From Atractiella rhizophila (Eukaryota), in NCBI GenBank assembly GCA_021432655.1, contig MU271208.1, positions 78,037 to 128,646 on the forward strand: a stretch of 50,610 nucleotides of DNA. Direction: 5' to 3'. This document shows, one piece after another, positions 15,211 to 47,890 of this stretch. Below the pieces are notes generated by a model. It did not search any database. It worked only from the letters and a program-made list of their open reading frames with translations, and had not been told where the DNA came from. Every line of letters begins with the position of its first letter. Within the stretch, counting starts at the first letter, position 1. The position numbers and the translations under genes were made by a program.

Positions 15211-15540
15211 ATTATGATCGCTAATCTCCTGACATCCGACAGACCGAAGTCCTTCCCACCGTCTCTTCAAAAATCGTCTTCCCTCAGTTGCAGAGCAGCC
15301 CCCTCTATCGCCAGCCTCTCATCCAGTCAGCATCAGTAAGTGCCATCACCTTCGCAGATCCTCAACTGATCTTTTATTTTTCCTTTTAGCCCGTGACGCG
15401 GATTCTCTGCAAAAGACGTCACAATCCAGCTTTTTTAGGAGCTGCATCTCATCACCTCCCACTTCATCCGATAATCCAAATACACATCAGCTGAAGTTAC
15501 GCAATACCCAGCCAGACAGCTACATAGGCAGCGACGCAAC

Positions 15541-18500
15541 ATGCCCACCAACTACTCTTCTCAGTCCCTCGAAGACCTCATCGCGGCCTATGGGGAGTCT
15601 CAAAACACAGTCTGGATCGAAGACAAGTTCCAAGTCTGGAGACACCCTGAACTGGGCATTCCGATCGGCTACGCGATCTCCAAAGACTACTGCATAACAT
15701 GGTGCAATCCGCTCTGCAAGCCCGAAGACTACCCGGCCGCCACCAGCGCCTTCGTGGACTGGTGCACGAAGGAGAAGGGATTGAAACCGATCTGGGGATG
15801 TCTTAACGAACCGATGTCACAAGTCCTCGGAGGCTCTCCTCACAATTGGAGCGTCCTCAGTTGTATCCAGGACGATCGACTTGATCCGACAAAGGTCGAT
15901 CCCCTCAATGATAATAAAGCCGGAGTGAGGAGGCCGGCGAAGCATGCGGAGAGTGAGGGAGTGAGCGTTGTGAGGGAACCGGAGGCGCCGACTGGGAAGA
16001 TTAGGGAAGGAATCGATGAGTGTTGTTTGGAGTGGAAGAGGGGGAGGAAGGGAGTTCAAGTCCACACATCGAACCTCGAGCCGTGGAACGATACCGCCCA
16101 CAGAGTCTATTATACTGCGAGGAGGAGCGTAGGCGACGACCCGAACAAGATCGTGGGATTCATGTTCATGACCAAACTCAGGGAGGGATATGTCATCAAG
16201 GACTGTCTCGAGTATCCTAAGCTTGCACCCAAGGGAACTAGCGAGCTCCTCATTCTCACAGCCATCAAGGATCTCGGGAACAGGGGCGTCGACCAGCTCA
16301 CGTTTGGTCCCTCTGCCGCCAAACAGATGACGGTCGTAGCCAACCTCAAGGGAATCAGAGTCAAAGGTCTCCAGGCGACGTACAACACGTTCGTCCTCCC
16401 TCCTTCCCGCTCTTTCCTGATTTGATAGTCGATTGGGTACACAGGATCGCTGATAAGATGGGTTTGATCAATCGCGGTTCTTTCCGTGCAAAATTTTCAA
16501 CAACAGTTCGTCATTTCTCTATCGAGGGTTAAGGAAACTGACGCACAACTCATAGCCCAAACCCCTCTACGTCGCTTTCCCCAAAGGTGGAATGGGCTCT
16601 AAAGGCGTCTTCGCCCTCATGGCGGTTCTGAAATCCGTGCGTGCTCCCTCCCACCTTCCTATCTTGCCTCCTCGTGTTTAAATCCAACCAACTGAGAGCG
16701 GTGCTACGGGATGGCTTAGGATCCGAAAGAAGATGCGGAAAGGGCTGCGAAGAAGAATCAACAGTACGGAATTGGAGGCGAGGGAGGAGATGAGTCGCCT
16801 CCTGTCTTTGGGAAAGTCTCTAGCGATTTGCCCAATCATGGAATGATCAGTCCTTTCTCGTTCGTCTCCTTCACTCTTCCCCATCCCGTGCATCTTAGTA
16901 GCTGAACCTTGGCGCTCTGGTCACAGTGTGCCCGCTCTACATGTCGTCAGGGATAGGATGAGCAGGATCAGCAATTCGATCAGGAGGAAACCTAACGGGA
17001 CAGTTAAGTCTAAGCCTTCGTCTAAAGTAGCGTGGGTCTCACCTCCTTCCTTCAAGAGTTTGGAGTGGATTGATGATGGCCGAAATTTTTTTGGTTTAGG
17101 AGCGGGACGGCGACCCCGAAAGAGGGGAAGGTGGCTAAGAACCAGTTGAAGAAGAAGAGAAGGGCAGAGCGGAAAGCAGAGAAGAAAAAGAAGAGGCAGG
17201 ACGCTTTGAAGGAGAAGCTTGGAGATAAGTACGTGCCTCCTGGACAGGAACCTGGTATGCCCGAAGACGTCAAGAACGAGGAGGTTCGTCCTCCCACCTC
17301 TATGAGGACTGAAGTTGAGTCTTGGGTAAAGGACTTCTCCAAAGGCAAATACGGGTTCTTGCCCTCTAATCTCAGCTTTGCGGAGACACCTTCGGTCGGG
17401 AACAAGAGGTATAAGATCGAAGAGATGACGGAGGAGAACGACGGGAGGAGAGTCGTGTTCCGTGCACGGTTGGAGCACTTCCGCATCCTCGGTTCGCCTT
17501 TCCCCCATCCGAGTTCTCATTCATGGACTCTGATTATGACGCTCTGTTCTGCGAACAGGATCGAAGATGGCCTTCATCATCCTCCGCCAGAGGACGTCCA
17601 CCATCCAAGCCGTTCTTAAATACGAACCTCCGATGGTGAGCAAGAAGATGGTCCGGTGGATAAGCCACATTCCTCTCGAATCTATCGTTCTCGTAGACGG
17701 CATCCTAGGCAAGACGGATAAAGAAATCAAGACGACAACTATCAAACACATGGAGATTCGTGTCGCTATGGTTCGTTCCTTCCCTTTCTCTGAGCGCGCA
17801 CTGATAAAGTTTGCTAGTTGCACGTCATCGCAAAGGCATCTATGAGACCCGTCTTCGATGTGGAAGACGCAGCTAGGCCAACGGCGGAGACGAATAGGGT
17901 GGGTCTGTTGTCTCCCTCCCGGTTGAAAGGTGGGAGGGTATGTTTGCAGCTACTAACAATGGCCTCCGTAGATTGATGCTCGCTTCACCAAGATCAAGCT
18001 CGAGACGCGCCTGGATAATCGAGTGTTGGATTTGAGGGTTTGTTGCTCCATTGCCTGAGTGTTGCTGGACTCGAGCTGATAATGATGATGTAGACCATTG
18101 AGAACCAAGCCATCTTCCGCATCAATTCCGGAGTCGTGAAGCTCTTCAGAACTTTCCTCGATGGAAAGGATTTCACGGAGATTCATACTCCAAAATTGCA
18201 GTTCGCAGCTACGGAGAGCGGAGCGAGTGTGTTCAAAGTCCAATATTTTAAGAGTGCGTTTTCCCTTCGTTCTTGATTCCGGTTGAGATCATACCTAACA
18301 TCCATGTACGTATAAAGCGACGGCGTTCTTGGCTCAGTCCCCCCAACTTCACAAGCAGATGTGTATTGCAGCGGATATGGAGCGAGTGTACGAGATCGGC
18401 CCAGGTATGCCTCCTCATTCTTCCTTCTAACTTCATTTAAAGGGTATGCATTCAGTCTTCCGAGCGGAGGATTCAAATACCCATCGCCATCTTACCGAGT

Positions 18501-19313
18501 TCACTGGCCTCGACCTTGAGATGGCATTCGAAGAGCATTATCACGAAGTCATGAATCTGGTTGACACCATGCTCAAGTTCATCTTTTCCGGCTTGCGGGA
18601 GCAATATAAGCGCGATATCGAAATCGTTCGGGAGCAATTCCCATCCGACGACTTCGTCTGGCTAGATGAGACCCTTCGCCTCACGTACCCCGAAGCCGTA
18701 GCGTTGTTGAGGGAGCATGGACATGAGATTGGGGATTACGAGGATATGAGGTTCTTTTCTCCTTCACAGAGCTCGAGCAGTTGTTGATGACTTCTCGTTG
18801 CGATAGCACGGAGAAGGAGAGAGCACTTGGTGGGATTGTCAGGGAGAAGTATAAGACCGACTACTACATCATCGACAAGTTCCCTGCTGAAGTTCGACCT
18901 TTTTACACTATGCCAGATCCGGACAATCCAGTTCGTCCTTCTTTCCCCCTACCCACCTTTGACCGTTCTGAACTTCGCGTAGAAACTGTCGAACGCTTTT
19001 GACTTTTTCATGCGCGGAGAAGAGATCCTGTCTGGCGCCCAGCGAGTAAACGATGCCAAGCTGCTCATCGAGCAGATGAAGAGGGTAGGCATCGAGAGGG
19101 ATCAAATGAAAGCCTATGTAGAGGCATTTGAGCTTGGAGCCCCTCCGCACGCTGGTGCTGGTCTCGGTGCGCCGTGTTTCCCTGTCTTAGTGAAATTGCG
19201 TGCTAATGTAGGGGGATAAAGGTCTCGAGCGTGTCACGATGCTCTTCCTTAAGCTTGGTAACATCAGGAGGTCCAGCCTCTTCCCTCGTGATCCGAAGAG
19301 GTTAGAACCTTGA
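15541..19313 (+). CDS. erdS: DUF2156 (aminoacyl-tRNA transferase)-aspartyl-tRNA synthetase fusion; ErdS-like sterol aspartylation enzyme with reversed domain order
   Basis: DUF2156-like part: [61 protein letters not shown]. Exons 15541-16388, 16445-16505, 16556-16636, 16720-16859, 16927-17031 and 17100 onward stay in frame into AspRS ([84 protein letters not shown]). Confidence 0.85.
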
Positions 19314-19555
19314 GCTGGCCACACCTTTCTAAAAGGTCATCTTCGATTTCCTAGATTGATCTTTAATTCTACCTCTTTTCCGTGTGTTTTGGGATTCTTC
19401 AATGGATGAAAGAAATGTATCCAAAGCGACCATGAGTCGCAGATTGTGCAATCGATACCGATTAGAACCTTCATTTCCATAGTTAACCAACTTGAAAGAA
19501 CATTGCGGCATACATGAACCAATTTCTTTTGGGCATTGTTACAACTCACTTATTG

Positions 19556-20979
19556 TCAATAGCTACTCGTCAATCTCGATATCACATATTCCCTCGGTGT
19601 AATAGGTTCAGGATATCTATCAGGCTGATCCGGCGTGATACAGCTCTCGATTGTCTTCACGGGCATGTCGAAGTTACTCCCAACAAACTGATTGTATCCA
19701 TCACCCGTCAGTGGGAATAGAGGATCAGTGATGGACATACGAAAGGGATCGACCATCTTTCTTTTGTCATTTGCCCTTCCAACGCCTCGGGAGGAGCACG
19801 AACGCGATGGATCGTGCTCTTCAGATAGTCGTTGCTCCCTATCCCAGTAAACGTCAATTTTCTCAATGACATGATTATTGCAAGAAAAGACGAACAACGC
19901 ATCAGAAAGTCTCCAGTGTTGAGGACGCAAGTTCCTTTGATTGGTGGAACGGGTCTGAAGCTCCCAGTCCCACTTCCCGCGCCGGGTTTTGCATGTTCCT
20001 CGATCTCGAGACCCCCAACATCGTCTTGCCACAAAAGGGTGAAGGTATCATAATCTGAATGAGCGCTGATCCTCTCCGCCTTCCCAGATAGAAGGTTCGA
20101 AGAAGGAATTGAAGGGTAGTGAAGAAGGCGAAGTTGATGCCCAGAGTTCGCGTGGTAAGGAAGAAAGAAGTCTTCTCGCGCTCCTAAGCCTATGGCGATC
20201 GCTTGCATGATTATTTGCGATGCTGCTTCGCACAGCTGTGGAAACGACTCAGGAAATTCCCAAAATAAAAGTCGAAGTAATGCTTACAGCATAGAACTTG
20301 GCACATTGGGCTTTGAAGCCAGGAACTTTCTCTTCAGGAGGGACGATATTGGGTTGATCGACTGCACATAAAGCACATCACTAATTTCGCTTGAAGAGAC
20401 GGGACGAGGGAGAAGAGCGAGAGGAGCGTGCTTCACCATTCGTATCTGACCCAAACTCAAAGCTCTCTTTCCAATCCATCGCTTTGACTCTTGCGGCTTG
20501 TACCGATTCTTCGTCTTGCAACCCATTTACTACTTTTTCGCGTCCAATTCCAGAGTAACCTCGATGGTGTGCACTATTCACTATTTGTCAATTTGAGATT
20601 GTTCAAAGATAATGCGACTAACGCACCCATTGGAAGGATGAGGAGCGAGCATCTTTGTTTCAAGCGGAGAATTGAAAAACTTCTTGCTCTGCCATAGGAA
20701 GTCAGTGCATTGTCCCTAGGCAAAGGAAAAGGACAAACCATTGAGAACATTTCTTCCACTTCTGCTGCTCCAACGATAGGAAGATTTCGGATGTACACAA
20801 AGCCAACGTTGCGCATTGCCTGGATGAGGGAGGAGGCGATGGCACTGCGTCTTTCCTGCCAGTCAAAGAGTGCTTGAGTCAGTCTAGCTGGCATGTACAG
20901 AAGGAGAGACGCCTACTGCACCTCCACCTTCGAAATCCGCGAAATCCACAATCGCTAAATCAAGGGGGGAAGAAGACAT
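19556..20979 (-). CDS. 2-oxoglutarate/Fe(II)-dependent dioxygenase (IPNS/DIOX-like)
   Basis: LAIVDF, AMRNVGFVYIRN, HRGYSGIGREKV, DWKESFEFG, LRLLHYP, HSDYDTFTLLWQD (HxD), KSTIHRV, RWSIPFF. Multi-exon. Confidence 0.92.
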
Positions 20980-31989: not shown

Positions 31990-33474
31990 GAGGGATCGCT
32001 CGTGTGGACATTATATCTCGTTCAGTTGATGGAGACACAGCTTGCGGCTCCAATCTCACCTCAAGAGCTGTCCTTCAGCATCCGGATAGAAATTGCAGAA
32101 AAAGTAGATAACGCAGTAGATTACGGGCTCGATGTCATCCATAACTGACTGCCCGTACATAGCCTCCTCGTTCCTCAACGCGTTCAGTACGCATCGAGAC
32201 AGGAAGAGGAAGGTCCGCTTAATGAAAGGTCAAGGTCAAGAACAAACATATAGGGGTAGGCAGGCTACTCACTGAAAGTGGATGTGGCTTTGCCCTGTCG
32301 TATCGAGAAGTCGAAATCATTCAGCCATCCGACAACTGGAGCATTCCCGCCATTCGCGTTCGTCTGAAATTCGCTAATAAAGATGTTGGCATAGGAAACA
32401 TCCCGATGGATAAAGTTGTGATCGTTTAACATCGCAAATTCTGCCCACACATCAACGCAAGGCCCAAAACAAACAAAGAGCACATACGCTTTAAGACACC
32501 TTTGAACGCGTCGAGCACATCGTCAAGACGTTTAGCTGAAGAAAGAGGGAGGCCCGCCGTAGAATGATAGATGAGGACGGGAATTAGGTCTGTCTCCATG
32601 ATCTCCGAAACATCGACGTCAGTCCAGAGAGCATTTTTGGAGAGGGTTTTTCTGGTTGACAGATCAGGCTGAGAAAGAATGAGACGAGGAGCGACCTGAC
32701 GCGGGAACTTGAGTCGGAAGAGTGGTTCGTGAAGGCCAGCTCCTCAGTTCGAGACCGACTGCCTACCTCCCAGGTGAAGTGCCACGCTGGGTCGTGCTCA
32801 AAGATGTTGAGAAATCCGATCTGTTCCTCCCTCGCTTTCGCAAACCGTGCGATGGTCTGTGCGACTTCTTTGAAGTGGTCTTCGAGCTGTTTTGGTTTTC
32901 CCTGAAAGTGCCCACCACGCATACTATTAATCCAAGAGTAATGTTTATCTCCAGCTGTATCAATGAACAGAGTCCAGACAAAACAGCGAGGTCTCGCCCC
33001 GAGAGTGTAGGCGGCGTTCCGTGCTAGTTGTGTGATCCCATCCGAAGTAGCACTCTGGAGATGGTCTCTGAGTTCTAATACCAGCGATATGTTCGAGTAC
33101 GCCTTCACAGGAGGGTTGATCTCATGGTGGACCAAGATTCCGTCCTGGTCGACGGATTCTCTGACGACTGCATTCGTGTATCACCTTTGCTGTATCTGGA
33201 CTTTTCCTTGCGCACGACCTGGAGCACCGTCTCTTCATTCATGATGCTCAATCAACTGTGAATTACTCACGCGATACAGCTCGTCCATCCAGGTTTTAAT
33301 CGAGTTCTCATTCTTCCAGTCCGCTGCAGTATACGTCGTTAGCTCGGGTGGCAGTTTGACCTCAGGTATGTCTATGTTTGGACATAGATCCTCCAAGACC
33401 ACAGCTGGTGATTCCAAGTTGAGTCGTTCACCTCGCGACAGGTTGCGCTGCAATGGTCTGAAGTTTACGGGCAT
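31990..33474 (-). pseudogene. FunK1 (Pkinase_fungal) kinase pseudogene, paralog of 45413-47890
   Basis: VLELR..QLARNA..RPRCFVW, HRDVSYANI, GWLNDFDFS, GTFLFLS, DDIEPVIYC. Frameshifting internal deletion near 32698 and a premature stop near 32055. Confidence 0.8.
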
Positions 33475-33770: not shown

Positions 33771-36231
33771 TTACAAATAGAAATTGAGTGGCAAAGCGAG
33801 CACATTGCATTGTTTAGTGTCTCTCCAATCCACCTGTCTACTGGTCGGATAATCCCATTCTCTAACTTGCTGACCAACAGTGGCTCCAACAGGTTTCCAG
33901 TTTGGATTATTCCTGGCAATCTTGGCAGAATCGATGTAATTTCTTCCTTCCAAGTATGAAACTGTGGGATTCGGATCGTGATTCCACGCAAAAGAGGCGA
34001 GGCTGTCTAGGACATGTTGGGAGAAGTAGAGATCAGCTTCATCCCTGTAGGAGACATCCGCAAACTGGGAGAAGCTAGAAAATAGGTAGAAAAGTTCCCC
34101 GGAGTGGCACCTAAAATAGGGGAGGGAAGTGTCCCTGCTCACATCAGATGATCAGTGAGCTGCTAAGTTGTGCAAACATTGAGCCGTACCCAAGCGGATG
34201 CTCCTTCGTTCGCGGTGCCTCGCAAGTCGGAGGATTGGGGCTCCATTGAACAATTTGGTACGCTCTCCAGATTTCGTATACGTAAATCTTCTGGAATGCT
34301 TGCCTTTGGGTCGCTGCATGAGCCGAAGCTTGATTAGCGCACCTCACTAGAAGATCAGTCTCTATCCTCGCCGTTGTGTTGAACATGTTCAGTGTGCTGT
34401 TAGTTCCCTCACTGGGAACCGGAAATGCTCCACTTTCCACAATGCTATCGATCTGGGTGTCATTGAACCCAAAGCTGACCAAATTGTCTTCCAAAGTTGA
34501 TCCTGGAGCAGGAAAGCCAATGAACGGGCCGCCGTCGTCCCTCATGAATCCCCAGATGAGTGGTACATCATTGGATGGCTCTCCTTTGACGAAAGGAACC
34601 GTGTCATGAAGGAGATACTCGCCATCTTGCACCATCGACCGGGAGTTGATGAAGTTGGAAGCGAAGGCAGCCGCCGACACACTAAGGAGACAAGATTTCG
34701 TTTCTTCAGCGCTGGTTAAGTTACCGCAGCCATGAGCACTTGCGACTTGGGCTCCAGATTGCGCAGCGACGGAGGGTGGAACGAACTGCGGGTCTGCACT
34801 CCAGAGCACGGTTAGGTTGCACTTGTTTGAGAAGATTGTAGACGCACTGCTGGTGACGTCTGAGGCCAGCATGGCGGCCGAAAACAGTCCTTTCGCTTTG
34901 GGAGTCGTGAGGAGAGCCGCAACACTGATTGCTCCAGCAGATTGACCGAAGATCATTACTCGTGTTGGCTTCAGAGTTTAAATGTCATCAGCCGGAGAAA
35001 TTGAGCACTGCAAACGAACGCACGTCTCCTCCAAAAGAAGCAATGTTTTTTTGTACCCATGTAAGCGCGGAGAGTTGATCCGACTATGCATTCAAGGTTT
35101 CATTGATCCTCTAACTCGTAGCGAGCAGGATGGAGAAGGAAGAGAACGCACCAATCCATAGTTTCCATTTACAATCTTGTCGTCTAGATAAAGATACCCT
35201 AAAGCACCAAGACGATAGTTAATGGTGACGACAACCACATCCCCTCTACTAGCCAAGTTGCCCCCGTCGAAAGTCGGATCTGAACCAGCGCCGTTGACGA
35301 AACCACCACCATGGACCCTATTTTGCTCTCAGTAGTATCTTCTCATTGTATACAAGGGATAAAGCAAACCAAATCATGACGGGTTTTCCACCATTTTGTA
35401 TCTTCCCAGGACTGGGAAGATAAGGGGTGAAGACGTTGAGGAATTGACAGTTTTCGGAAGAAGGAAGCGTTGAGTTCTGGGGACATTGTGGTCCATAATG
35501 CGTTGCGTCGAAGCGCTGGGTGGTGTTAGAAGAACTGTAGACTGTGGAATGCGTCCATCGTGGAGTTGGATTCGCTGTCACTGCGTGTCAACAGCTTACC
35601 ATTGGCGGAAGGCAAGCATTTACTATATTGTATGCCTAAGAAGCGGAAGGAGACTTTATCTCGAAACCTTGAAAGCCATTTTGAGCTCTCTTTTCTCACC
35701 AGAATGAACGTCGTACCCCATGTAAGTGTTGCCCTCCCGGTCCAACACAGAGTGTTGGAATTGCTTGGATGTGTCCGAAAAGTTGGATGGCTTAAACGGT
35801 CCTGATTGAGAACAAAGCACAGGAAGTTGAGAGTTACAGTCTACGCTCGACTTCTGCAATGTTCCCTGCTTCGGTCCCAAGCTCACTGCGCTACACTTCT
35901 GCCTCTGATCCGATGTCGTAGATGTCCAAAATTTCTGACCCTTGTGGAACCCATTTAGGTTGCTGATTTGATAGGCGAGCTGGAAGGCCAAGTCGTCTTC
36001 CTCCCCGTCAATGGCATAGAGTTGCTCCCCAATGCCTGCGCAAGCGGAGCCGGCATTCTCGAACACGAAAAAAGAGGGAAGAAGGAGTGCGCCCTTCGTA
36101 TCAGCAGCGGTGCGGTAGTCCAAAGTATTCTGGAAGAGGTGGACGATCGCACTTTGGTTTTGGCTCGATAGTTGCGATCGAGATTCCAACGCAAGGGCGA
36201 ACGCGAGTGAAGGGAGGAGGAAGAACCGCAT
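33771..36231 (-). CDS. Secreted type-B carboxylesterase (COesterase family), complete copy
   Basis: Signal peptide MRFFLLPSLAFALA. FRFLGIQY, SENCQFLNVFTP, VHGGGF, VVVTINYRLGALGYL, FGQSAGA (catalytic Ser), RCHSGEL (catalytic His, codon 34104-34106). Confidence 0.9.
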
Positions 36232-39200
36232 GGCGCAGAGAGAAGATTGTCTTCTTTTCTTTCCTTTCACTTTTATGACGCTACCTCGGGCGAAACGGAC
36301 GTTCATCAGGAGGTGGGGAGAGGATCACATCACTTTGCACTAGCGACGTGACCATGCGGCTACGCTTGAACGTTAAAGCTGTTCTGCTTTCCGAGAGTAG
36401 CAAGGGTACTTAGATGACGGTGAGCTCGCCTCTGAGCGTCTAGATAGCAGACGTGATATAAGACGTGAAATGGACACTCGAAAGGCGCATGCGAGGCAAT
36501 TCGGACGGGATGGCAGCAGCGTGACGGACAAGTCGAGATGGGAGATACGGAACGCAGGCCGTCAGATAAACAGCTGGTGGCCATGTGAAGATGAAGTTGA
36601 AATTGAATGCAATGCGTTGCAAGTTGGCTGAGAACAGGGTAGCTCAATTTAATATCACCCTCTTCCCGCAGCAGCCATGATCGACACAAACTTGAAGAAC
36701 CACGATGCAAGTTGACCGCACGTCTGGTTCACCAACTGGGGATCGATCAGGATCGATGAACAGGTTTCCACTGGTTTCAAGCGCAAAGGACGCAATTCCG
36801 GAGTATTGCAAGCCTGTATTGACGCTATTGGGACTTTTTCCATCCGTTTCTGGTTCCTTCAACCTCTCGACGTCAGCTCCACTTCCAACAAAGAAAGACA
36901 AGAATATCTCATTGTCGCATTCAGTATCGATCGACCAAGGGGTCACCAATATCGAGATTTATGCCTACATGCTCTAGTCTCTTCGCCAAGCGCATTATTC
37001 CCTGATATGCGTCCTCGTTCTCAGTCCAGTCTGTAATCGCTCCGTCTCTTAGATGCAGCACGCGCAAGGTATCCATGAAGCGAACAGCAGTCTCGTACAA
37101 AATGTCCGGGAGTGTACCCTTTCCGAAGCAAGCGTTAAGGGCTAATTGTCGAATGTTGGGGGCGAAAGGACCCGTACAGGGAAACTTCCACTCCGCCAAG
37201 GGGTACAGACGGAGCTCAAGGACTTGTAAAGAATGTAGTTGTTCAACGTGCGAATAGAAGATGTTGTCGAGTCGATTGGGAGCTTCATCAAGCTCAAAGA
37301 GCCCAATAAGATATTCCTCTTCATTTGAATGTGAGAGTCGCACAATTTCCAAAGTCCCCTTGCAATCTCGCAAAATTGGGTAAACGTAGGTTTCGAATGT
37401 GTCACCGAATAGGAGAAGCTCTAACAATCGCAGAGGCGGAAGTGGTTTGCTTTGCTGGAGTGTATTGGTAAGGAGTTGAAGCATAAACGCAGCCTGGCGT
37501 TCAGATCCCTCCGCTCTCACGCGCAAGTTCCGGAGAGTCTTTGGGAAAACGAGTTCTACAGGTGCGTGTATAGGTGTCTCAATCGAAGGCAAAAAATCCC
37601 TCGAATTTGGTATGTCATCTTCGCGTGTGAATTCAAAATTCTCAGGAGGTTGTGAAACCCAAAGGGCGTTCACAGGCGTCAGACTGCAGTTGCGGCGCCA
37701 TTCCTCAAAAACGTTGATTGTTTTCAGTCGATCCATGCATTGGATGAGCTGGGGAAGATGTCGTCTGATATCGTGAACACCTTCTGGCTCCGTCAGGAGC
37801 GAGTGGTCGTTAAAACTAGGTAGAAAGTGGAAGAGCTCAGGCAGGTCGGCAAAAATAGTCAAGGTACACAAACAAGTGCACTTCGAAAGAACCATGAGAA
37901 TGAAAAGACGTTGCTGCATTTCTAGTTCCGGGGGATTTATCGCATATCGAAGGTGTCGAACAAATGTGGCAATCTCAGGGCGCTTCTGTAATGCTCGTTG
38001 TAAGGAAAGGACGTCGTCTAGGCTGCGTAGAGTTGGTGGAGTGTGATATAGTGCTCGTTGGACCTATGAAGTTCTGGTATGAGTCAATTGCCCGACTGAA
38101 CGAAGAGGACATGTACCACCCGATACAACGGCTTGGATAAACACAATAGCGCGACTGTGTCCTCATTGTATTCCATCACGACTTCATCGAAGATGTGCTG
38201 TAAAACCTCTATCGGAAGCCTCTCTAACCTGCTCGAAGACGAGGACTGTTGCAATGAGTTCGCTTGACGCTGCGGAGCCTCGCAAGTCGGAGGATTGGGG
38301 CTCCATTGAACAATTTGGTACGCTCTCCAGATTTCGTATACGTAAATCTTCTGGAATGCTTGCCTTTGGGTCGCTGCATGAGCCGAAGCTTGATTAGCGC
38401 ACCTCACTAGAAGATCAGTCTCTATCCTCGCCGTTGTGTTGAACATGTTCAGTGTGCTGTTAGTTCCCTCACTGGGAACCGGAAATGCTCCACTTTCCAC
38501 AATGCTATCGATCTGGGTGTCATTGAACCCAAAGCTGACCAAATTGTCTTCCAAAGTTGATCCTGGAGCAGGAAAGCCAATGAACGGGCCGCCGTCGTCC
38601 CTCATGAATCCCCAGATGAGTGGTACATCATTGGATGGCTCTCCTTTGACGAAAGGAACCGTGTCATGAAGGAGGTAGTCGCCATCTTGCACCATCGACC
38701 GGGAGTTGATGAAGTTGGAAGCGAAGGCAGCCGCCGACACGCTAAGGAGACAAGATTTCGTTTCTTCAGCGCTGGTTAAGTTACCGCAGCCATGAGCACT
38801 TGCGACTTGGGCTCCAGATTGCGCAGCGACGGAGGGTGGAACGAACTGCGGGTCTGCACTCCAGAGCACGGTTAGGTTGCACTTGTTTGAGAAGATTGTA
38901 GACGCACTGCTGGTGACGTCTGAGGCCAGCATGGCGGCCGAAAACAGTCCTTTCGCTTTGGGAGTCGTGAGGAGAGCCGCAACACTGATTGCTCCAGCAG
39001 ATTGACCGAAGATCATTACTCGTGTTGGCTTCAGAGTTTAAATGTCATCAGCCGGAGAAATTGAGCACTGCAAACGAACGCACGTCTCCTCCAAAAGAAG
39101 CAATGTTTTTTTGTACCCATGTAAGCGCGGAGAGTTGATCCGACTATGCATTCAAGGTTTCATTGATCCTCTAACTCGTAGCGAGCAGGATGGAGAAGGA

Positions 39201-45412: not shown

Positions 45413-47890
45413 TTAAGGTTTTAGAAGACACAAAGACTCATCACTGGAACTCCCATTGAATCTTTTCTTTCCCTCTTCCAACGCTTCTATCATCGCCTGA
45501 ACAATATTCCTGACTTCATCCTTCCGATCACAGCCTGCGGGAAACAAAGATTCCCAACCATCCCCAACTTTGACGAGTTGGTAACGCAATCGAAGTGGAA
45601 GAGAGATTTCCCAAAGGAGTGATACAACATGCTCCTTGTCTTTCTCCCACTTCCAACTCTCAGGATCACCGCGTATCAGCAGCTCGAGTATTTCATCATT
45701 GAACAGATTGCGCAAAGCCGTCATTTCCAGTTCAGGGGGTAATCTCTCAAGAAGATTGCCTTTGGATGTGAGCGCCGCGGTTGGGTCCAACCAATGTCGA
45801 AGTGGATAGCGATCCTTTTGCTCGATAGGTGGGACAGACAAAACTGAATTTGTTGTCATGGATCCGTGAGTCCTTTGCCCAGTCGGGGTGTCAAGAATGC
45901 GGCTCCAATCCCGAAACGCGAAGGGTCCACGTTGTCCTTCAGTCTGTGGGACGTAATGACAGAAAAAGTAGACTAGGCAGTAGAAAAGAGATTCGACATC
46001 ATCCATAATTTCCTGGCGGTATGAATCATTCGTCTTCATCGCCGCTTTAAGCGCGCATCGTGATAGGAATGGCAAAGTACCCTTAGAAAAGGTCCATTCA
46101 GAATCACTGAAGAGTAAGACTAGCGAGCCACTCACTGAGATAGGATGATGTTGATTTTGCCCACCATACTTCATGTTCATGTTCACAGATAGGTCAAAAT
46201 CGTTCAACCAACCGATCACAGGAATACGTCCAGCGTCCTTTCCTGGCTGAAATTCGTGAATAAAGATGTTCGCATAGGAAACATCTCGATGAACAAAATC
46301 GTGATCATTCAAGGTTGCCAATTCTATTGAAGCGTCAAGCAAGGTTCTGAAATACATCAGTACTTACGGTTTAAGACACCTTTGAGTGTATCGAGGACAT
46401 CGTCAAGAGACTTCGCTGATGCAAGTGGGAAGCCGACCGTCGAATGAAAAATCAGGACGGGAATTCGATTCATCTTCATTACCTCAGAAGCATTTCCGCC
46501 TTTCCACAGAGCAGTCGCGGTAAGGATGTTTCTGGTGGAAAGGAGAGGTTGAGAAAGGATGACATGGGGAGCATGTTCGAGCCAGGCACAAGCTCTCGCA
46601 CGATCGTCATTTACTGCCAATTTATCCGAACGCTCCCTCCGCCAAGAATTGAATAGTTCGATGTGCTGCTTCAACCTCTCCAACAGGTCCTCCGACAGCC
46701 ACATATGTTTAATGACTCCATAACGTTCCGTCCCTTCATCCAACTCGCATGCCCATACCTGCGTGCCACTCCCGGTGAGAGAGTACGATCGAAATAGTAT
46801 CTCTTCCACCCAGTTTGTAAAGAACCCGTCACCGACGACATCCCACTTGTTCTCCTTCAAACGTCCACCTAGGTCCAGCATAAATTTGTGCAGAGGACGG
46901 CACGTCGAATGTTCAGGACAGAAGGAGGTGGAAGATGGTGCACTCAGGCCGGCTGCCGATGTTGTTGATGTCTTGGCTGGAGACGCGGGTTGGGATGGTG
47001 ACGAACGCGAAGAGTATGCAGTGCGAGCAGGTTGCTTGGAAATAGGCTGACGGAAAGGGTCCCAGCTGAACTGCCACTCAGGTTTGTGATCGAAAATGTC
47101 GAGAAACCCGATTTCCTCCTCACTCCCTTTCGCGAAGCCTGCGATGGTCTGTGCAACATCTTCGAAGTTCTCCTCTAGATCCTTCGCATTCGACTGAAAG
47201 CGCCCACCACGGGTACAGACGGTCCAGCAGTATTGCGTGTTAGGCCCAGACTTATCGATCAATAGACTCCAGAGAAATGTTCGTGGTCTCCCTGCGAGCA
47301 TGTAGACCGCCCCTCGAGCTAGCTGAATATTCCCTCCCGCAGCGGTACTCTCCTTCCGATCCTTAAACTCGAAGACCAGCGCAATATTCGAATACGACTC
47401 TGTCGGTGGATCGATTTTGTAATAGATTATCATTCCGCCCACCTTCACGGATTCCGTGTTCGTCGGATTATCTGACAATTGCACCCGTTTATCGACTTTG
47501 AAATATCGAGAAGTTGGAGACTTGGGGAACAAATGCTGATACATCATATCCACCATATCAACATCTACTTGGTTCAGAAAAGTACGAATTACTCACTCCG
47601 TACATATGCTGCATAAAAATTTTGATCGACTCCTCATCCTTCCATTCTGTTGCATGATATCGCAGGAGCTCGAGTGGCAGCTCCACCTTGGTGATCTTTG
47701 GGCGTAAGTCTTCCAACATCACGGCGGCAGCTTGCTGCTTTGACCAATTTGCGTGCTGGTGGCGGCTCGCAACATGTTCGAACTTGGAAGTCATTTTGTT
47801 TGGCGATATACCTTGTTGACTATCGGTCGGCAACGAGGACAAGGCGGGAGAAGGTAGAGAAGTCGATGTGTTTCCCGCCGTATTCGACAT
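45413..47890 (-). CDS. FunK1 (Pkinase_fungal) protein kinase
   Basis: VFEFK..QLARGA..RPRTFLW, LTGSGTQVW, GVIKHMW, HRDVSYANI, GWLNDFDLS, GTLPFLS, DDVESLFYCL. Three ORF blocks joined by short introns. Confidence 0.88.

Follow-up and report, generated by a model that had tools for sequence, protein, structure and literature searches.

To our knowledge, no eukaryotic enzyme other than ErdS, the ergosteryl-3beta-O-L-aspartate synthase of A. fumigatus, channels charged tRNA from a synthetase domain of its own to a domain that modifies lipids. ErdS is defined by a DUF2156 domain joined to the C-terminus of an aminoacyl-tRNA synthetase (PMC7334510). The 2026 cryo-electron microscopy analysis of ErdS indicated that the fusion, an N-terminal helix and a trans-acting transferase together trap the tRNA as a swinging arm (PMC13219428). 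The helix, with the motif xSKxxLKKxx, clamps the tRNA from the elbow to the anticodon stem; its N-terminal end lies at the elbow, which is also the resting place of the cis transferase domain, and a swing of 23 Å takes the CCA-Asp end to the other protomer's transferase (PMC13219428). ErgS of Ascomycota takes Gly-tRNA from an independent GlyRS and is reported to be absent from Basidiomycota but for one species (PMC8913301). LysX of mycobacteria and corynebacteria consists of an MprF-type membrane domain, a GNAT transferase and a C-terminal LysRS with an OB fold (PMC10580965). Here we analysed a stretch of 50,610 nucleotides from the root-associated basidiomycete Atractiella rhizophila (contig MU271208.1 of assembly GCA_021432655.1, forward strand positions 78,037 to 128,646; hereafter the window), which carries a gene that couples a DUF2156 domain with an aspartyl-tRNA synthetase (AspRS) in the order opposite to that of ErdS. 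The gene is an ErdS-like fusion arranged in the order of LysX, it is real at the RNA level, and it has so far been found in one lineage; its function would be to aminoacylate a lipid in a tRNA-dependent manner. The initial annotation, made from the sequence alone, had called it an ErdS-like two-domain enzyme with reversed order and had placed AspRS first and DUF2156 at the C-terminus in ErdS. Both claims hold, since PMC7334510 gives that order for ErdS and PF09924 precedes PF00152 in the deposited Atractiella protein. Our best explanation of the whole, which we consider fairly probable, is a single spliced mRNA for a 959-residue bifunctional DUF2156-AspRS protein with ErdS-like activity, formed by a fusion independent of ErdS.

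The features of the gene are as follows.

15277-15540, plus strand: 5' untranslated region, from spliced contigs, with an intron inside at 15336-15389
15541-19313, plus strand: DUF2156-AspRS fusion gene of Atractiella rhizophila, ATG at 15541 and stop at 19311-19313
15541-16388, 16445-16505 and 16556-16636, plus strand: exons 1-3, DUF2156 double-GNAT domain, residues 1-330
16389-16444, 16506-16555, 16637-16719, 16860-16926 and 17032-17099, plus strand: introns 1-5, all GT..AG, one open frame
16720-17130, plus strand: linker, about residues 331-422, comprising exon 4 (16720-16859), exon 5 (16927-17031) and the first part of exon 6
17131-17283, plus strand: Lys-rich helix of the AspRS N-terminal extension, placed by alignment with the ErdS chain from residue 50
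17284-17331, plus strand: intron 6, 48 nucleotides, from RNA contigs, overlooked in the initial annotation
17332-19313, plus strand: AspRS body, with the OB fold (exon 17559-17770) and the class II catalytic domain
17492-17558, 17771-17817, 17899-17971, 18038-18093 and 18254-18317, plus strand: first five introns of the AspRS body, GT..AG
18405-18455, 18751-18806, 18931-18982 and 19167-19221, plus strand: last four introns of the AspRS body, GT..AG
19314-19687, plus strand: 3' untranslated region of uncertain extent; X19 record 8 reaches 19687

Analysis of Logan RNA contigs from four runs (X19, X1, X2 and X8, the last a library labelled metatranscriptomic), out of 23 runs containing part of the stretch, revealed that the gene makes one spliced mRNA for the fused protein. 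The joints 16505>16556 and 16636>16720 are present in all four runs, and the joints 16388>16445, 16859>16927 and 17031>17100 in three of the four each; the X8 contigs carry the first three upstream joints, including 16636>16720. The five GT-AG introns and the single frame from ATG 15541 given in the initial annotation, with exact coordinates for the three introns that it had singled out for an RNA check (16637-16719, 16860-16926 and 17032-17099), are thus seen spliced. Its exon model nevertheless overlooked the 48-nucleotide sixth intron inside a presumed single exon, for which the joint 17281>17330 (GT..AG, with the cut at +2) is present in all four runs. In the AspRS body, contig joints cover eight of the nine introns (the joint table omits three joints), and the intron 19167-19221 was deduced from the pieces 18983-19165 and 19221 onwards, which are adjacent in single records of X19, X1 and X8. 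X19 record 6 (1210 bases) maps to 16022-16388, 16720-16859, 16927-17031 and 17100-17281, and its unlisted parts agree exactly in length with exons 2 and 3 together and with 17330-17490 followed by 113 bases from the next exon. These pieces and matching lengths indicate one assembled molecule, spanning 16022 to about 17670 with seven introns spliced out, which runs from the DUF2156 exon through the linker introns into the anticodon-binding exon.

At the 5' end, the joint 15335>15390 (GT..AG) was observed in contigs of X19, X1 and X2; X19 record 5 (660 bases) has 601 bases on 15390-15990, with 59 left upstream of this joint, and an in-frame stop at 15472-15474 precedes the first ATG. Downstream of the gene, contigs from X1, X2 and X8 stop at 19425-19459. 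The coding region has 15 introns in total, and the RNA-supported protein has 959 residues, with an expected mass of about 107 kDa. About 90 linker codons are open over three spliced junctions, and the frame enters the AspRS correctly. Comparison of the window with the contigs listed 40 differences, with 16 more beyond these; none of the 35 coding differences alters an amino acid when read in the fused frame (3 in the DUF2156 region, 1 in the linker and 31 in the AspRS), and the further 5 of the 40 are non-coding. No contig end or loose end near 16700, where the initial annotation would have expected polyadenylation if the two domains came from separate transcripts, was reported in the contigs of the four runs.

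When exon 1 was used to look for longer proteins, four of 1528 candidates were returned, the first of them the deposited protein P0001 (972 residues). P0001 matches exon 1 with 100% identity and carries the NCBI name "aspartyl-tRNA synthetase [Atractiella rhizophila]", with Pfam matches to PF09924 (22-310), PF01336 (525-594) and PF00152 (647-966, E 6.9e-83). The fusion is thus already in the public annotation, but its name there gives no hint of the transferase domain. The 48-nucleotide intron is left out of P0001 too. P0001 retains 13 residues from the 73-nucleotide intron 17899-17971, which is fully removed in contigs of X19, X2 and X8, so the model is too long by 13 residues there.

The protein consists, in order, of the DUF2156 domain (residues 1-330), the linker (331-420), the Lys-rich helix and a complete AspRS. 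A Pfam scan on nine single-exon translations identified PF09924 (LPG_synthase_C, equivalent to DUF2156) in the translation of exon 1 (E 5.9e-11; 42.4 bits, where the cut-off is 27.5), PF01336 (OB fold) on exon 7, and PF00152 on four later exons, three above the cut-off and one at 17.3 bits; the pieces from exons 3, 4 and 6 matched no Pfam family. The DUF2156-like N-terminal domain and the complete AspRS read from the DNA by the initial annotation are both borne out. The closest solved relative, and the top match overall in the PDB, is A. fumigatus ErdS (9w9f, 947 residues). Window residues 8-325 align with 9w9f residues 628-942, covering the whole transferase domain (197.5 bits), and residues 414-972 of P0001 align with ErdS residues 50-593 at 497 bits, against 543 bits for the AspRS part with the canonical yeast AspRS (1asy). 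Whether fused or free-standing, most relatives have a DUF2156 domain that reaches the C-terminus or comes within a few residues of it; the window domain stops at residue 330, where exon 3 ends, close to the point at which most of the related proteins finish.

The linker is of low complexity, with G, S, P, N, Q or T at 40 of the 93 positions from 328 to 420, 16 K/R and 10 D/E. The Lys-rich motif VAKNQLKKK (residues 423-431) is internal rather than N-terminal and fits the motif of the ErdS N-terminal helix. Its equivalent in P0199, a second, canonical AspRS of Atractiella rhizophila (NCBI name, 543 residues), is located near the N-terminus (LSKNELKKRAKEEEKARKKAEREAKE, motif LSKNELKKR). Judged by these motifs, the Lys-rich stretch is the normal tRNA-binding helix of eukaryotic AspRS and not a new spacer. 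The charged linker quoted in the initial annotation belongs in part to this helix.

Residues were mapped by hand from the HMMER alignment to 9w9f and checked against the column make-up of our own alignment, with the ErdS residue lists taken from PMC13219428. Mutations in the CCA pocket of ErdS abolish or lower activity (PMC13219428), and all eight pocket sites (W785, R789, K790, G791, Q793, H795, F913 and K916) are identical in the window. R914 is also identical, bringing the CCA-pocket and catalytic sites to nine of nine; in ErdS, H795 is the proposed general base and R914 the proposed charge-stabilising residue (PMC13219428). The class II motifs of the AspRS, including GAGLGLER, are intact in the alignment. 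On this comparison, the catalytic motifs of both the transferase and the AspRS are intact.

From these features we infer the following activity, product, channelling and route of origin. An AspRS dimer would charge tRNA-Asp while the Lys-rich helix grips the tRNA elbow, and the CCA-Asp end would be handed to the tethered transferase domain. The transferase would attach the aspartate to a membrane sterol at its 3-OH, or perhaps to another lipid hydroxyl, and the product would most likely be an aspartylated sterol. Since about 90 flexible residues connect the transferase with the helix end at the elbow, its resting position may resemble that in ErdS, and the linker should be long enough to reach the CCA end in cis or in trans. 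The initial annotation had proposed that the geometry of the tRNA hand-over would differ. The gene would have originated when a free-standing DUF2156 gene was joined to a downstream duplicate of the canonical AspRS, leaving the old stop of the DUF2156 gene within intron 3. Retention of this intron adds 14 codons up to a stop at 16679-16681 and yields a free-standing DUF2156 protein of 344 residues; splicing versus retention could decide whether the transferase is made in its fused or its free-standing form. An internal ATG at 16958 (MSRISNS...) in the linker is possibly the former AspRS start.

The origins of the two domains were analysed in separate trees. The window AspRS is nearest to canonical basidiomycete AspRS (55-60% identity, Pucciniomycotina first) and is 58% identical to P0199. 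In the AspRS tree (38 rows, 489 columns, IQ-TREE mixture model, Mucoromycota outgroup), the 12 ErdS domains form a clade (100/100) with the window row outside; the window is sister to P0199 (86/92), and the backbone among the groups is not resolved. In the DUF2156 tree (28 rows, 328 columns), the ErdS clade (99/94) leaves the window row outside as well. The window transferase is sister to P0005, a free-standing protein of 355 residues from Phellopilus nigrolimitatus (98/90), and another seven free-standing proteins of basidiomycetes group in a clade of their own (100/100). With both domains outside the ErdS clades and with P0199 and P0005 as their sisters, a fusion separate from that of ErdS is favoured by the trees, although not proven. 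Between the two routes in the initial annotation, independent fusion or domain swap, the first is therefore preferred, while a link to ErdS is not firmly rejected. P0199 presumably serves translation, and the window AspRS, being a second copy, is probably not the housekeeping enzyme. An amoebozoan protein also groups among the fungal DUF2156 rows: P0041 of Planoprotostelium fungivorum (631 residues) has a C-terminal DUF2156 domain (E 5e-48 to the window domain) after about 295 residues, which may reflect transfer between fungi and a fungus-eating amoeba.

Taken jointly, these results suggest a wider reading that we regard as evenly balanced. Two fungal fusions would have occurred independently in opposite orders. 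In Atractiella, a free-standing transferase gene would have taken over a duplicate of the housekeeping AspRS lying downstream, converting a stop and spacer into an intron and linker, with the enzyme, given its diverged sterol pocket, perhaps acting on a lipid other than ergosterol and intron 3 possibly acting as a switch.

Among relatives, 12 of the 13 two-domain proteins typed by Pfam have the order AspRS-DUF2156, and only P0001 is reversed; the 12 come from Elaphomyces, Filobasidium, two Tilletia and unnamed metagenome proteins. A phmmer search with exon 1 against 1.84 billion representatives gave 303 hits, and among the 150 listed, all 13 proteins of at least 800 residues start their match at residue 403 or later. 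The protein encoded in the window was itself not listed in this library, and fusions clustered under AspRS representatives would be invisible in it. Word-based searches for longer proteins gave few hits (the four of 1528 candidates above, and five of 8000 word-sharing candidates). The lack of other reversed fusions is consequently weak evidence. A metagenome scan for relatives with their flanks gave one locus (L001, 25% identity over 97 residues, no AspRS) and was uninformative. The Entrophospora proteins P0174 and P0175, the best AspRS hits by bits, were considered as fusion relatives and rejected, being canonical AspRS with the catalytic domain twice. This doubling is probably a gene-model or assembly artefact, with faint spurious Pfam hits between the copies. 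The reversed order is not described in the searchable literature on ErdS, fungal DUF2156 or Atractiella; supplementary figures lie outside that search, and some (Supplementary Fig. 15 of PMC13219428 and Fig. S1 in the supporting information of PMC7334510) may show Pucciniomycotina architectures.

Several observations weigh against an independently formed, sterol-acting fusion protein, and they are given here, most of them beside the alternative that they favour. The reversed order was found in one genome only. In the alpha(+) helix R749 alone is kept, with P for K750, K for R752 and H for R753; one additional R directly precedes the R749 position, and the charge is partly retained. PF07859, the family of the ErdH-type hydrolase, was not found among 27 open reading frames of at least about 148 residues in the window, where small exons could escape; a divergent erdH (PF07859) next to erdS is usual, not universal.

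The alternative that survives best, though we place it on the unlikely side, is a fused Asp-tRNA enzyme with another acceptor, whether another Pucciniomycotina sterol, a glycerolipid or some other hydroxyl or amine compound. The sterol pocket is identical to that of ErdS at 7 of 16 positions (Y637, T643, W645, N677, C728, W802 and K838). Three changes are conservative (D647>E, R649>K and E731>D), S642 is N in the window as in 9 of the 12 ErdS rows, and five positions differ, including S644>V and Q836>V, the latter at a site that is Q in all 12 ErdS rows. In ErdS, mutation of S644 has the strongest partial effect and Q836R abolishes activity (PMC13219428). Given these two substitutions and the low pocket identity, the acceptor may be a sterol other than ergosterol or no sterol at all. 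Another acceptor would also agree with the use of 24-ethylcholesterol-family sterols by Pucciniomycotina and the promiscuity of ErdS for sterols (PMC13219428), and with the position of the window transferase in a clade outside ErdS. However, the seven identical positions are core residues of the pocket, the proposed general base H795 is retained, and sterols are what all of the nearest characterised relatives act on. An aspartylated sterol is still preferred as the product; with the pocket diverged and given the sterol class of Pucciniomycotina, the acceptor may be another.

Less probable again, and in our view unlikely, is a rearranged ErdS, in which an ancestral AspRS-DUF2156 protein was split or permuted and re-fused in the opposite order, so that both domains would derive from ErdS. 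In an approximately unbiased (AU) test, the grouping of the window AspRS with the ErdS clade was not rejected (log-likelihood difference 1.26, p 0.451), on a tree built without ascomycete canonical AspRS. For DUF2156, the corresponding grouping met only a borderline rejection (log-likelihood difference 11.0, p 0.041). Strict thresholds identified four columns that distinguish ErdS from canonical AspRS, two of them edge effects, and relaxed thresholds identified nine. At the one of these nine columns with the ErdS state, the window has the Phe of N(S/A)F, which is F in all 12 ErdS rows and Y in all 25 canonical rows. The window further shares His795 with ErdS, a position that is Ala in seven of nine free-standing rows, and has ErdS as its top structural match. 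On the other hand, the window shows the canonical state at six of the nine columns (another state at two), its rows lie outside both ErdS clades with full or near-full support, its AspRS scores higher with the yeast canonical enzyme than with ErdS, and the DUF2156 test leans the same way. An independent fusion therefore remains our preferred origin.

The last alternative concerns the transcript. The contigs give no RNA ends, a contig over two genes does not by itself establish one transcript, and separate transcripts or intron-3 retention are compatible with the contigs. The X2 contigs contain intron 5 (17032-17099) unspliced; over this intron they carry 1-base deletions at 17059 and 17086, and pre-mRNA, library DNA or a related strain could be their source. 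A read-through transcript with two working products, a free DUF2156 protein from intron-3 retention and an AspRS from ATG 16958, with the fused protein minor or absent, would suit these points, the 344-residue product (348-358 residues in free-standing relatives) and an ATG lying 35 codons ahead of the Lys-rich motif (22 in P0199), but it is improbable given that all five junctions are in frame with the linker open, that the spliced form was assembled in every one of the four runs, the labelled metatranscriptome included, that contigs show no reported end near 16700, and that only about 275 nucleotides separate the stop from ATG 16958.

The genes next to the fusion are one of F-box-like type and one for a 2OG-Fe(II) oxygenase. 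Carboxylesterase open reading frames (PF00135) are located 15-20 kb downstream at 34144-34977 and 38084-39037, both on the minus strand; they encode esterases but not of the ErdH family. Fungal protein kinase open reading frames (PF17667, two of them adjacent) lie at 32584-33180 and 45413-47592, also on the minus strand.

A second fusion in the opposite order, if independent, would mean that coupling AspRS and transferase physically has repeatedly been favoured by selection. It would also test which features of the ErdS geometry are essential, since in the window protein the transferase is attached to the helix that clamps the elbow rather than to the C-terminus of the catalytic domain. If our explanation is true, the gene would be a natural permutation experiment on the swinging-arm hand-over of tRNA. 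Free-standing ErdS-like transferases in Basidiomycota are not discussed in the searched literature.

Among the known systems close to the window protein is ErdS (PDB 9w9e, 9w9f and 9w9g; PMC7334510, PMC13219428). Both combine an AspRS paralogue with a DUF2156 double-GNAT transferase, carry a Lys-rich tRNA-elbow helix ahead of the anticodon-binding domain, conserve the CCA-pocket residues, H795 and R914, and have a separate canonical AspRS in the genome. Unlike in ErdS, the transferase is N-terminal, with a linker of about 90 residues between it and the helix, neither domain falls within the ErdS clades, and the sterol pocket is diverged. In its order, a transferase followed by a class IIb synthetase (OB fold and catalytic domain) that would supply its aminoacyl-tRNA, the protein resembles LysX as described in PMC10580965. 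It differs in having no membrane flippase domain, with DUF2156 starting at residue 8, and in having AspRS instead of LysRS; LysX is bacterial and transfers Lys to glycerolipid acceptors, and our sequence comparison gave no sign of common fusion descent. Compared with canonical AspRS (yeast Dps1, 1asy and 1eov; P0199), the synthetase part has 55-64% identity, the Lys-rich extension, the OB fold and the class II motifs, and the protein has 420 extra N-terminal residues including the transferase. Free-standing ErdS-like DUF2156 proteins of about 300-500 residues (P0005, P0158, P0014, P0019, P0023, P0034, P0031, P0049 and P0054) occur in Phellopilus, Jaminaea, Pseudohyphozyma, Tulasnella, Rhodotorula, Flammula, Marasmius, Psilocybe and a Microbotryomycetes species. 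Ala at the His795 position in seven of these nine basidiomycete rows, where the window has His, hints at another acceptor or chemistry in the free-standing proteins. The window transferase shares its end point with its sister P0005 (Phellopilus KAH8119712.1); unlike the window protein, the free-standing fungal DUF2156 proteins carry no synthetase.

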